DNA of 64,000 nt, taken from sequence record MT932213.1; one strand, written 5' to 3'. This document shows positions 34,004-34,758 of this stretch, in pieces (the first letter of the stretch is position 1; every line of letters begins with the position of its first letter). Source of the stretch: Escherichia phage VEc74. The notes below the pieces were generated by a model that was given only the letters and a program-made list of their open reading frames with translations, did no database searches and was not told the DNA's origin. Both the position numbers and the translations under genes were made by a program.

Positions 34004-34079
34004 TGGTCGAGGCAGTAGGGATCGAACCTACGACCCAGGACTTAGAAGGTCCTTGCTCTTCCTTCTGAGCTATGCCTCG
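34004..34079 (-). tRNA. tRNA-Arg (anticodon UCU)
   Basis: Hand-folded cloverleaf: acceptor CGAGGCA/TGCCTCG, anticodon loop CUUCUAA, T-loop GGTTCGATCC, encoded CCA. Confidence 0.85.
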
Positions 34080-34083
34080 TATT

Positions 34084-34158
34084 TGGCGGACGTGATAGGA
34101 TTCGAACCTATAACCAATCGCTTAACAGGCGATCGCTCTGCCATTGAGCTACACATCC
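34084..34158 (-). tRNA. tRNA-Asn (anticodon GUU)
   Basis: Acceptor GGATGTG/CACGTCC, anticodon stem ATCGC/GCGAT with loop CUGUUAA, T-loop GGTTCGAATCC, CCA. Confidence 0.85.
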
Positions 34159-34162
34159 AAAT

Positions 34163-34249
34163 TGGTGGGGAGTGGTGGAGTCGAACCACCCGAGTCGCAA
34201 TGACAATGGATTTACAGTCCACACCGCTACCTCTACGGGATAACTCCCC
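34163..34249 (-). tRNA. tRNA-Tyr (anticodon GUA), long variable arm
   Basis: Acceptor GGGGAGT/ACTCCCC, anticodon loop CUGUAAA, long variable arm, T-loop GGTTCGACTCC, CCA. Confidence 0.8.
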
Positions 34250-34259
34250 CAAATTAATT

Positions 34260-34334
34260 TGGTGGCCCTGGGTGGAATTGAACCACCATCTGGCGATTAT
34301 GAGTCGCTTGCTTGAACCTTCCAGCTACAGGGCC
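34260..34334 (-). tRNA. tRNA-Ile (anticodon CAU, T4 tRNA-Ile type; tRNA-Met not excluded)
   Basis: Acceptor GGCCCTG/CAGGGCC, anticodon loop CUCAUAA, T-loop GGTTCAATTCC, CCA. Confidence 0.8.
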
Positions 34335-34335
34335 T

Positions 34336-34411
34336 TGGTGCTGATTGACGGAATCGAACCGCCGACCTTCTCATTACAAGTGAGTTGCTCTACCTACTAA
34401 GCTAAATCAGC
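34336..34411 (-). tRNA. tRNA-Thr (anticodon UGU)
   Basis: Acceptor GCTGATT/AATCAGC, anticodon loop CUUGUAA, T-loop GGTTCGATTCC, CCA. Confidence 0.85.
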
Positions 34412-34416
34412 AAAAC

Positions 34417-34506
34417 TGGCGGAGGCGATAGGATTTGAACCTATGAGTCGCCGGAGCGACTGCCGGTTTTCAAGACCGGTGCATTAAACCACTCTGCCAC
34501 GCCTCC
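34417..34506 (-). tRNA. tRNA-Ser (anticodon UGA), long variable arm
   Basis: Acceptor GGAGGCG/CGCCTCC, anticodon stem CCGGT/ACCGG with loop CUUGAAA, long variable arm, CCA. Confidence 0.85.
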
Positions 34507-34508
34507 AG

Positions 34509-34582
34509 TCTCCGCGGCAGGATTTGAACCTGCGACATTCTGCTCCCAAAGCAGACGCTCTACCAAACTGAGCTACACGGAG
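34509..34582 (-). tRNA. tRNA-Pro (anticodon UGG), CCA not encoded
   Basis: Acceptor CTCCGTG/CGCGGAG, anticodon loop UUUGGGA, T-loop GGTTCAAATCC; discriminator followed by CU then tRNA-Ser (2-nt spacer). Confidence 0.85.
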
Positions 34583-34592
34583 TAAATTAAAT

Positions 34593-34666
34593 TGGAGCGG
34601 ATAATGAGAATCGAACTCACATCATCAGATTGGAAGTCTGAGGTAATACCATTATACGATATCCGC
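34593..34666 (-). tRNA. tRNA-Gly (anticodon UCC)
   Basis: Acceptor GCGGATA/TATCCGC, anticodon stem TCAGA/TCTGA with loop CUUCCAA, T-loop GGTTCGATTC, CCA. Confidence 0.85.
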
Positions 34667-34671
34667 AAATT

Positions 34672-34758
34672 TGGTGCGAGAAGTGGGACTCGAACCCACA
34701 AGGAAATCATTCCGCAGCATTTTAAGTGCTGTGCCTTTACCAATTTGGCCATTCTCGC
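34672..34758 (-). tRNA. tRNA-Leu (anticodon UAA), long variable arm
   Basis: Acceptor GCGAGAA/TTCTCGC, anticodon stem CAGCA/TGCTG with loop CUUAAAA, long variable arm, T-loop GGTTCGAGTCC, CCA. Confidence 0.85.

Follow-up and report, generated by a model that had tools for sequence, protein, structure and literature searches.

The tRNA cluster described here is very probably a Tequatrovirus tRNA operon of the T2 type, the common form that lacks segB, in which a predicted HNH endonuclease gene has taken the place of tRNA-Gln. It would serve in tRNA supply and in the buffering of tRNA-Tyr, and its tRNA-Asn and tRNA-Thr may be resistant to AriB. By the window we mean the whole stretch of DNA that was analysed, 64 kb in length. 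The locus is genuine but already known. Its tRNA set and order, its T2-type block, its SegB target and the defence role of tRNA-Tyr have either been published or recur in GenBank, across dozens to hundreds of genomes. As a discovery it is of little weight, and its use is that of a worked example. It illustrates that, as a reference for the tRNA content of T-even phages, T4 is atypical, and that the tRNA content of a given phage is explained by homing endonuclease genes and not by tRNA insertions. It also indicates that predictions of counter-defence by phage tRNAs should look past the anticodon loop, because the relevant differences lie here in the variable arm (tRNA-Tyr) and in the anticodon stem (tRNA-Asn and tRNA-Thr). 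Each functional statement on the window phage is inferred by transfer from T4, T2, T6 or T5.

Composition and layout of the operon

Across the whole 64-kb window, ARAGORN identified exactly nine tRNA genes, all on the minus strand at 34004-34758, and in the sense of transcription these are Leu(UAA), Gly(UCC), Pro(UGG), Ser(UGA), Thr(UGU), a CAU tRNA, Tyr(GUA), Asn(GUU) and Arg(UCU) (Table 1). Independently of ARAGORN, Rfam RF00005 matched all nine above its gathering score. Eight of these matches scored 60-74 bits (E 1e-10 to 1e-14), and tRNA-Tyr was barely over the threshold of 29 bits. It was noted that this tRNA-Tyr gene is at least 95% identical in approximately 509 phage records and that the T6 tRNA-Tyr, which it matches at all but one position, has experimentally established expression. 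The nine calls of the initial annotation, with their anticodons and order, were thus borne out, and its statement of eight tRNAs in T4, with no Tyr or Asn among them, is correct.

The window belongs to Tequatrovirus, with a DNA identity of 97% to both teqhad and phiD1. From the open reading frames and the annotation of relatives, the operon was found to be flanked on one side by the trna.2-4/ipI genes and on the other by the e.8-e.5 genes, on the same strand; Pfam searches with the neighbouring open reading frames gave no match. The window shows the T-even core order, Leu-Gly-Pro-Ser-Thr-Ile(CAU)...Arg, and after it come rnaD, rnaC and a terminator. The exact eight-tRNA set of T4, including Gln, was not matched, and the window carries a T2-type/HNH variant and not the T4 allele.

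Table 1. Features of the tRNA operon in order of transcription, with window coordinates.
Feature	Position	Strand	Evidence
T4-middle-promoter-like sequence (candidate): MotA box TTTGCTTTA, 12 nt, TATTAT	35456..35482	-	invariant with T4 in alignment
tRNA-Gln remnant, first 7 nt, TGGGAAT	35380..35386	-	at the T4 gene-start position; alignment with T4, teqhad and SH_GT
Predicted HNH endonuclease gene, free-standing, 202 aa, at the place of tRNA-Gln	34765..35373	-	ORF; PHROG; alignment
tRNA-Leu(UAA), first tRNA of the operon	34672..34758	-	ARAGORN; Rfam 64 bits; 86/87 identical to T4 tRNA-Leu
tRNA-Gly(UCC)	34593..34666	-	ARAGORN; Rfam 65.8 bits; 74/74 identical to T4
tRNA-Pro(UGG)	34508..34582	-	ARAGORN; Rfam 70.2 bits; 84% identical to T4 tRNA-Pro
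tRNA-Ser(UGA), CCA encoded	34417..34506	-	ARAGORN; Rfam 62.6 bits; body 87/87 identical to T4
tRNA-Thr(UGU)	34336..34411	-	ARAGORN; Rfam 71.7 bits; 72/76 identical to T4
tRNA with CAU anticodon, probable Ile2 (lysidine) type, T2 allele	34260..34334	-	ARAGORN ('Met'); 75/75 identical to T2; only 65% identical to T4 tRNA-Ile
tRNA-Tyr(GUA), long variable arm	34163..34249	-	ARAGORN; Rfam 30.3 bits; 86/87 identical to T6, 85/87 to T2
tRNA-Asn(GUU)	34084..34158	-	ARAGORN; Rfam 74.1 bits; 75/75 identical to T2
tRNA-Arg(UCU), T2 allele	34004..34079	-	ARAGORN; Rfam 65.8 bits; 76/76 identical to T2; 74% identical to T4/T6 tRNA-Arg
T4 rnaD homologue (species 2 stable RNA), after tRNA-Arg	33883..33999	-	101/118 positions identical to T4 rnaD
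T4 rnaC homologue (species 1 stable RNA)	33738..33876	-	138/139 positions identical to T4 rnaC
Intrinsic terminator hairpin with T run, operon end	33660..33687	-	10-bp stem with 7 G-C pairs, TTTTT; terminator scan

The terminator hairpin is conserved in T4, teqhad and Shigella phage vb_GEC_SH_GT (SH_GT). When the rnaD/rnaC stretch was searched against Rfam at a permissive threshold, the only return was a chance-level isrK match on the opposite strand (16 bits vs a gathering score of 50). In T4, a middle promoter has been reported just ahead of the tRNA cluster (PMC2330249). The window sequence at 35456-35482, which lies upstream of the operon and hence now of the HNH gene too, resembles such a promoter and was assigned as a candidate by conservation and the MotA consensus only; a generic sigma-70 scan did not report it. 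A single transcript of approximately 1.8 kb would start near this sequence, run through the HNH open reading frame, the nine tRNAs, rnaD and rnaC, and end at the terminator. The tRNAs would be released by host RNase P and 3' trimming enzymes. Addition of CCA would be needed by tRNA-Pro only, since this tRNA, as in T4, is fused to tRNA-Ser.

Alone among the nine, tRNA-Pro lacks an encoded CCA, and the 2-nt distance to tRNA-Ser given in the initial annotation holds when counted after the discriminator base. The junction reads ...GGAG-A, then CT, then G1 of tRNA-Ser (GGAGA-ct-GGAGG), and is identical to that of T4. By this spacer sequence, the Pro-Ser pair has the layout of a dimeric precursor, as had been proposed.

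ARAGORN labelled the CAU tRNA as Met, and it was noted that the same label was given to the established tRNA-Ile of T4. We found that the window tRNA begins its acceptor stem with G1-G2-C3-C4-C5 (C4-G69 and C5-G68 pairs), a start common to E. coli ileX and not to metT, and that it shares with ileX the 15-nt anticodon stem-loop core GCGACTCATAATCGC. E. coli metT differs in both respects, with a GGCTACG start and the core ATCACTCATAATGAT. The G27-U43 pair of ileX is A27/C43 in the window tRNA. The C4-G69 and C5-G68 pairs together with an ileX-like anticodon arm are TilS determinants in the E. coli literature. The acceptor-stem start and the anticodon core support an Ile2 (lysidine) type and the Ile(CAU) call made earlier. 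An elongator tRNA-Met, as labelled by ARAGORN and GenBank, is unlikely given the match of both elements to ileX and the mislabelling of T4 tRNA-Ile.

Homing endonuclease genes and tRNA content

The initial annotation had viewed Tyr and Asn as inserted between Ile and Arg, and this was not upheld. Ile-Tyr-Asn-Arg is the majority, segB-free state and is carried by approximately 380 GenBank phage records. The window block is 98-100% identical to that of T2, with the CAU tRNA, Asn and Arg at 100% and Tyr at 85/87. As published, SegB homing excludes the T2L Met-Tyr-Asn-Arg block and has the tRNA-Asn gene as its target, with segB inherited at 99.6% and approximately 1250 bp excluded (PMC2330249). 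T4 is the odd one out, having lost Tyr and Asn through segB homing; the record census and the SegB literature rule out insertion of the two genes. We determined that the preferred 27-bp SegB recognition site, GGTTCGAATCCTATCACGTCCGCCAAA, is intact in the window tRNA-Asn at 34108-34082. It fits the published consensus (tested as GGTTCRANTCC...CCAR, with G6, A16, G18, A26 and A27 as the discriminating bases), and none of these five bases is missing from it. As published, the Ser site and the Asn SegB site differ at exactly 5 nt (PMC2330249), and eight of the ten published T2L primers match the window exactly.

Neither ARAGORN nor Rfam detected a tRNA-Gln in the 64-kb window, and the earlier observation that none is present at the expected start of the cluster was confirmed. 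This is, however, not a simple absence. Gln is missing because an HNH gene replaced all but the first 7 nt of tRNA-Gln, and a hidden or degraded copy is ruled out by the ARAGORN and Rfam searches and by the alignment, which leaves only that stub. The stop codon of the HNH gene falls 6 nt before tRNA-Leu. Its product matched phrog_14736 ('HNH endonuclease', E 5e-124) and nine other HNH PHROGs, and a DH...N...CPNCH motif is visible in the translation; with Pfam PF01844 it scored 17.3 bits, under the 21.4 cut-off, and a PDB sequence search with the protein gave no match. Among phage records, 63 carry this protein at an identity of at least 95%, and 58 at one of at least 99%. The HNH-Leu junction was found in 63 records vs 448 with Gln-Leu, with identical flanks, and the HNH gene is present or absent at one fixed site among near-identical genomes and is more uniform than its flanks. 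Searches of reviews and papers found no description of an HNH gene replacing tRNA-Gln in T4-like phages, and a full-text search gave mostly papers on mitochondrial genomes. By comparison among these phages, homing endonucleases shape tRNA content, with segB acting in T4 and T6 and with the HNH gene of the window having erased a tRNA-Gln that most relatives keep.

tRNA supply, host defence and rival explanations

The initial annotation suggested that Tyr and Asn could act as counter-defence factors and that their anticodon loops should be compared with those of the host. No difference was found, since positions 32-38 read CTGTAAA (CUGUAAA) in tRNA-Tyr and CTGTTAA (CUGUUAA) in tRNA-Asn, identical to E. 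coli tyrU and asnT, and loop escape mutations are thereby ruled out. The counter-defence idea is right for Tyr, by analogy with the near-identical T6 gene and with T5-like phages, where it is already published; the anticodon route did not hold, as the cut falls in the variable loop. The T6 tRNA-Tyr rescues T6 from Septu, which T4, without tRNA-Tyr, cannot escape, and deletion of the T6 tRNA region raises Septu sensitivity (PMC13096335). The single native copy in T6 gives only partial protection, as Septu cuts this tRNA too, at C48, and full escape required segB-driven amplification (PMC13096335). That route would be closed in the window because its cluster has no segB, with Asn and Arg directly after Tyr. 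The tRNA-Tyr of T5-like phages counters retron-Eco7 (PMC11555353, PMC12673091), and its variable arm is required for this inhibition in the T5-like phage SP15 (PMC12673091). We found that the variable arm and T arm of the window tRNA-Tyr are identical to those of T5 tRNA-Tyr. The window tRNA-Tyr would then buffer translation when PtuAB nucleases (Septu, retron-Eco7) cut the variable loop of host tRNA-Tyr.

For Asn and Thr, the relevant system is PARIS, whose AriB nuclease acts on the host tRNAs Lys, Thr(UGU) and Asn(GUU), with the cut falling between positions 40 and 41 and with U39 as a requirement (PMC12409363). At positions 36-41 the window tRNA-Asn has UAAGCG vs UAAUCC in the host (U39G and C41G), and tRNA-Thr has UAAUGA vs UAAUCA in E. 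coli thrU (C40G). These anticodon-stem changes at the cleavage site are suggestive, and both tRNAs may resist AriB. PARIS blocks T4 except when tRNA-Lys of T5 is provided (PMC12409363). Against both PARIS and PrrC, this T5 tRNA replaces the cleaved host tRNA. ARAGORN called no tRNA-Lys in the 64-kb window, and the Asn and Thr variants alone cannot give PARIS resistance because tRNA-Lys(UUU) is a necessary component.

Several other readings of the locus were weighed. The nine tRNAs, including Tyr and Asn, could be kept solely to meet codon and amino-acid demand, with no anti-defence role. Relative to a small E. coli sample (15 genes, 4,934 codons), Tyr (1.83x) and Asn (1.79x) are the two most enriched amino acids in the window ORFs, with UAU at 2.9x, AAU at 3.2x and AGA at 19x; every A-ending codon that the other seven tRNAs read is enriched (1.7-19x), and the lost tRNA, Gln, is the least demanded of the set (0.81x). 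The host-type loops of Tyr and Asn would add capacity with no new decoding or obvious nuclease evasion. In the main reading too, and as shown in relatives, the tRNAs would top up the host pool for the over-used codons AGA, AUA, UUA, GGA, UCA and ACA and for Tyr and Asn in an AT-rich phage. Demand as the sole explanation is nevertheless rather unlikely, given the measurable weakening of Septu by the T6 tRNA-Tyr and the sensitivity of the T6 deletion, the sharing with T5 of the arm needed against retron-Eco7, and the fact that the changes in Asn and Thr coincide exactly with the determinants of AriB cleavage. Supply and defence roles are also mutually compatible. A much less probable reading takes Tyr and Asn as recent additions to a T4-like set that replace host tRNAs cut by anticodon nucleases and carry loop escape changes. 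Phage tRNAs do replace cleaved ones, as T5 tRNA-Lys and the T5-like tRNA-Tyr illustrate, and of the four tRNAs with a UQU anticodon that colicin E5 cuts, three are Tyr, Asn and the His of teqhad-type phages (PMC1635277, PMC1669751). This reading is already contradicted, however, on the direction of change, the Tyr-Asn block being the majority state that T4 lost, and on the anticodon loops, which retain the U33-G34-U35 recognised by colicin E5 and would not be spared by a loop-directed nuclease. The known tRNA-Tyr nucleases, moreover, cut the variable loop.

The tRNA content could also be set mainly by sweeps of homing endonucleases, with individual tRNAs as near-neutral passengers. The variants all differ by a cassette that adjoins a nuclease gene (segB for T4 and T6, an ORF for T2, HNH for the window), and the HNH gene keeps its identity of at least 99% across 58 records with flanks that have diverged to 95-98%. 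The efficiency and extent of SegB homing point the same way, as do the T5 HNH genes, which likewise adjoin tRNA genes, and the tRNA region of T4 has been described as dispensable for phage development (PMC2330249). Against this, tRNA sequences are strongly conserved over hundreds of phages, the T6 data indicate a selectable benefit of tRNA-Tyr, and demand for Tyr and Asn is high; we regard this reading as rather unlikely, if by no means negligible. The preferred reading remains an operon for supply and tRNA-Tyr buffering whose content is shaped by homing. Two extensions of it are offered tentatively, with a chance somewhat below even. In the first, the T-even tRNA operon may be disputed by a pair of homing endonucleases, each of which removes the tRNA gene carrying its target (tRNA-Asn for SegB, as shown, and tRNA-Gln for HNH, as a putative target). 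In the second, Asn and Thr may be AriB-resistant and form a partial PARIS countermeasure so far undescribed in T-evens. If HNH does target tRNA-Gln, the window phage would exclude the Gln allele of its relatives in mixed infection and would itself be open to exclusion by segB.

Comparison with known phage tRNA regions

The T4 cluster, Gln-Leu-Gly-Pro-Ser-Thr-Ile-segB-Arg-rnaD-rnaC, has the same position, strand, upstream promoter region and terminator as the window operon. Its Leu, Gly and Ser genes are 99-100% identical to those of the window and its Thr gene 95%, whereas for the Ile and Arg alleles identity is no more than 65% and 74%. T4 further has Gln and segB, with no Tyr or Asn. On its Ser and Ile genes no CCA is encoded, whereas the window encodes it on both; at the 3' end of tRNA-Ser, T4 has TAA at the place of the window CCA. 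The T6 tRNA-Tyr (Chihara et al. 2026, PMC13096335) is 86/87 identical to that of the window, the sole difference being G30-C40 in the window vs G30-U40 in T6, and the two tRNAs agree in the variable arm and in the cleavage context G46-U47-C48-A49. In T6, segB lies beside Tyr and allows tandem amplification, and the cluster lacks Asn, Pro and Ser and retains Gln. The segB gene sits in T6 where the window keeps Asn, and in T4 where it keeps Tyr and Asn.

The T2/T2L tRNA region (EMBL AJ880101; also RB1 and RB3; Brok-Volchanskaya et al. 2008, PMC2330249) is segB-free like the window, has the same preferred SegB site in tRNA-Asn, and has rnaD and rnaC after the cluster. T2 retains tRNA-Gln and has an ORF where the window has tRNA-Thr, whereas the window has the HNH gene for Gln and retains Thr. 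More distant is phage T5, of a different family (Demerecviridae), with approximately 24 tRNAs including tRNA-Lys. Its tRNA-rich region nevertheless resembles the window in having heg HNH genes (F-Tfl enzymes) interleaved and co-transcribed with tRNA genes, which they abut or overlap, hegD overlapping a tRNA-Gln pseudogene. The T5 HNH proteins are only distantly related to that of the window, the closest being hegA with 35% identity over 170 aa. The T5 tRNA-Asn shares U39G with the window tRNA-Asn.

The closest likeness to the window was found among at least six sequenced phages that are colinear with it, each giving a single 96-99% match over the HNH gene and the whole cluster, and these include the Shigella phage SH_GT, Yersinia phage phiD1 and Escherichia phages EC.W14-2, ES12, ES26 and JoYop, with point differences only within the cluster. 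By ARAGORN, the nine tRNAs of SH_GT and their order are those of the window; SH_GT lacks the 174-aa ORF that is found upstream of the candidate promoter in the window. The commonest HNH-bearing form is approximately 190 bp longer, which fits a tRNA-His between Asn and Arg as in teqhad, whose ten tRNAs all lie in the cluster and include no tRNA-Lys. Given at least six colinear phages, the arrangement seen in the window is not unusual.

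The tRNA cluster and its transcription unit

Across the 64-kb window, ARAGORN called exactly nine tRNA genes, every one a minus-strand gene lying within 34004-34758. Their transcription order is Leu(UAA), Gly(UCC), Pro(UGG), Ser(UGA), Thr(UGU), a CAU tRNA, Tyr(GUA), Asn(GUU) and Arg(UCU). All nine exceeded the gathering score of the Rfam tRNA model, eight at 60-74 bits and tRNA-Tyr at 30.3 bits against a threshold of 29. No tRNA-Gln was called within the window by either tool, and tRNA-Lys was also absent from it. The calls, order and coordinates of the initial annotation were therefore correct, with Tyr and Asn supported and no tRNA-Gln missed. 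Its observation that tRNA-Pro lacks an encoded CCA and stands 2 nt before tRNA-Ser was likewise borne out, the spacer being CT exactly as in T4. A CCA end is encoded for both the Ser and the CAU tRNA of the window; the corresponding T4 positions read TAA (Ser) and TAT (Ile). The Ser and Ile tRNAs of T4 require 3' trimming plus CCA addition; in the window phage these steps would concern tRNA-Pro only.

The CAU tRNA was labeled 'Met' by ARAGORN and in many GenBank records, and ARAGORN gave the same label to the established tRNA-Ile of T4. However, the gene shares with E. coli ileX the acceptor-stem start GGCCC (C4-G69, C5-G68) and a 15-nt anticodon-arm core, GCGACTCATAATCGC, both of which E. coli metT lacks. 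Judged by these shared elements, Ile(CAU), as initially proposed, appears to be the better call. It was noted that the apparent 'tRNA-Met' mislabel extends to hundreds of Tequatrovirus records, T4 tRNA-Ile included.

Many T4-like coliphages of the genus Tequatrovirus matched the region at 96-98% identity, the best matches being teqhad, the Yersinia phage phiD1 and the Shigella phage vb_GEC_SH_GT (SH_GT). Flanking ORFs were counterparts of T4 e.5-e.8 on one side and of trna.2-4/ipI on the other. Two stable RNAs of T4, rnaD and rnaC, each had a homologue downstream of tRNA-Arg, and neither homologue matched an Rfam family. The rnaD homologue has diverged from T4 far more than the adjoining rnaC homologue. 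Aligned with T4, the 100 nt upstream of the cluster were conserved base for base. The whole T4 cluster is driven by an upstream middle promoter (PMC2330249), and an element resembling a MotA-dependent middle promoter was found in the window. By conservation with T4, transcription would run from this promoter through the HNH ORF, the tRNAs, rnaD and rnaC to the terminator. Between trna.2 and the promoter, an ORF of 171-174 aa (phrog_2290; no Pfam match) was observed, its last codons overlapping the MotA-box-like element; the window and teqhad have this ORF, and T4, T6 and SH_GT do not.

Positions of features in and around the tRNA cluster
Feature	Coordinates	Strand	Remarks
phrog_2290 ORF	35473-35997	minus	
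Putative MotA-dependent middle promoter	35482-35456	minus	resemblance and conservation with T4
tRNA-Gln remnant	35386-35380	minus	first 7 nt, TGGGAAT; alignment with T4
HNH endonuclease gene	34765-35373	minus	202 aa; in cassette; stop codon 6 nt before tRNA-Leu
Encoded CCA, tRNA-Ser 3' end	34417-34419	minus	
CAU tRNA	34260-34334	minus	
Encoded CCA, CAU tRNA 3' end	34260-34262	minus	
tRNA-Tyr	34163-34249	minus	
SegB preferred-site match, tRNA-Asn 3' end	34108-34082	minus	GGTTCGAATCCTATCACGTCCGCCAAA; fits consensus GGTTCRANTCC...CCAR
rnaD homologue (T4 stable RNA)	33999-33883	minus	101/118 identical to T4
rnaC homologue (T4 stable RNA)	33876-33738	minus	138/139 identical to T4
Strong terminator hairpin	33687-33660	minus	after rnaC homologue

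The Tyr-Asn segment in T2, T4 and the window

The T4 order is Gln-Leu-Gly-Pro-Ser-Thr-Ile-[segB]-Arg-rnaD-rnaC, and the position of segB, a homing endonuclease gene, is occupied in the window by Tyr-Asn, which had been initially read as an insertion. Compared with T2, the CAU, Asn and Arg genes were 100% identical and Tyr matched at 85/87 positions, whereas the T4 alleles of the CAU and Arg genes were only 65% and 74% identical. Eight of the ten primers printed for T2L by Brok-Volchanskaya et al. 2008 (PMC2330249) were found exactly in the window. The cluster of the window phage lacks segB, and T2L, RB1 and RB3 are also without it; in these three phages the preferred 27-bp site of SegB lies inside the tRNA-Asn gene, and in T4 x T2L crosses approximately 1250 bp containing Met(Ile)-Tyr-Asn-Arg are replaced by the segB cassette (PMC2330249). 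The site in the window tRNA-Asn carries all five distinguishing bases (G6, A16, G18, A26 and A27), and exactly 5 nt set the tRNA-Ser site apart from it, matching the publication (PMC2330249). The Ile-Tyr-Asn-Arg segment was encountered in about 380 GenBank phage records, some with His added, and the window-type tRNA-Tyr at 95% identity or more in about 509. The T2 identity, the SegB site and the roughly 380 records identify the T4 arrangement as derived and T4 as the atypical member for tRNA content.

Supply and counter-defence roles

Codon usage was compared between 72 ORFs of the window, 16,940 codons in total, and a small E. coli sample. Relative to this sample, Tyr (1.83x) and Asn (1.79x) were the most enriched amino acids, and codon enrichment reached 2.9x for UAU, 3.2x for AAU, 19x for AGA and 1.7-4.9x for the remaining A-ending cognate codons. 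Gln was under-used (0.81x), which fits a dispensable tRNA-Gln.

The extra Tyr and Asn tRNAs had also been proposed as counter-defence factors. Septu (PtuAB) cleaves tRNA-Tyr within its variable loop; over-expression or amplification of T6 tRNA-Tyr relieves Septu, deletion of the T6 tRNA region makes the phage more sensitive, T4, which has no tRNA-Tyr, does not escape, and T2 is resistant (Chihara et al. 2026, PMC13096335). Single-copy T6 tRNA-Tyr protects only partially and is itself cleaved, and the efficient T6 escape route needs segB (PMC13096335), unlike the window, where no segB is present. The window tRNA-Tyr is one base apart from that of T6 (G30-C40 in the window, G30-U40 in T6), with the same variable arm and G46-U47-C48-A49 context, and it shares both its variable arm and its T arm, without a difference, with T5 tRNA-Tyr. 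Inhibition of retron-Eco7 by the T5-like phage SP15 depends on the variable loop, and the phage tRNA is uncut (PMC12673091). On this near-identity to T6, the counter-defence idea appears right for tRNA-Tyr and is already published.

The anticodon-loop route to that idea did not hold. [quoted passage not shown] The informative differences lie in the variable arm and anticodon stem, not the loop. AriB, the nuclease of PARIS, cleaves three host tRNAs between nucleotides 40 and 41, namely Lys(UUU), Thr(UGU) and, less strongly, Asn(GUU), and a U39 change abolishes cleavage (PMC12409363). Positions 36-41 of the window tRNA-Asn read U36-A-A-G39-C-G41 against U-A-A-U-C-C in the host, U39G being shared with T5 tRNA-Asn, and the window tRNA-Thr carries C40G. 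From these bases, both tRNAs are plausibly AriB-resistant and a counter-defence role for tRNA-Asn is plausible, but they cannot defeat PARIS alone because tRNA-Lys is lacking from the window; the possible resistance, if true, is a small loose end. Overall, supply and defence functions, transferred to the window phage from T4, T2, T6 and T5, both appear supported by these comparisons and are mutually compatible.

It was also noted that tRNA-Tyr recurs in unrelated phage groups. Its segment was approximately 96-97% identical in 136-138-kb phages (Phage 203, LL12, nimi), against 83-87% both in T5-like phages and in phages of roughly 86-89 kb, a pattern that points to horizontal exchange or to strong selection in common. 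The coliphage-type gene is also carried, at 97.7% identity, by Campylobacter phage A13b (MG065677.1) and some 18-21 further records labelled 'Campylobacter phage'; this is unexpected for such a host and may stem from mislabelling or contamination. In T6 (MH550421.1), which is without Pro and Ser, the annotated 'tRNA-Thr' at 2339-2413 received no ARAGORN call and may be a deletion chimera.

An HNH endonuclease gene in the place of tRNA-Gln

The reported absence of tRNA-Gln was upheld, and the alignment with T4 added that all but a 7-nt stub of the gene is swapped for a cassette of approximately 640 bp carrying an HNH endonuclease gene. The protein matched PHROG 14736 'HNH endonuclease' (E 5e-124), while its Pfam HNH match fell below threshold. 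Among GenBank records, the HNH-Leu junction was counted in 63 and the T4-type Gln-Leu junction in 448, with no record seen to have both; the protein occurred at 95% identity or more in 63 records, and in 58 of these the identity was at least 99%. The gene therefore sits at one fixed site, and it is more uniform than its surroundings. These features are characteristic of homing endonuclease genes, here with putative activity and target. Because a GGGA in the stub precedes the HNH start codon by 8 nt (35374-35386, minus), the acceptor-stem remnant of tRNA-Gln may now be its ribosome-binding site.

At least six sequenced phages (SH_GT, phiD1, EC.W14-2, ES12, ES26 and JoYop) were colinear with the window over the HNH gene and the whole cluster, and in SH_GT ARAGORN recovered the nine tRNA genes of the window in unchanged order. 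Most HNH-bearing phages were approximately 190 bp longer, consistent with a tRNA-His between Asn and Arg, as teqhad carries.

The feature is real and accurately described, and the locus is an ordinary allele of the tRNA operon of T-even phages that had been documented before, in which the uncharacterised HNH endonuclease in the tRNA-Gln place is one loose end. T5 (NC_005859.1) also has HNH endonuclease genes among its tRNA genes, including hegA, the nearest T5 relative of the window protein (35% identity). The hegC and hegA genes abut tRNA genes, and hegD (5345-5979) overlaps a tRNA-Gln(CUG) pseudogene, a parallel to the HNH-for-Gln swap in the window.
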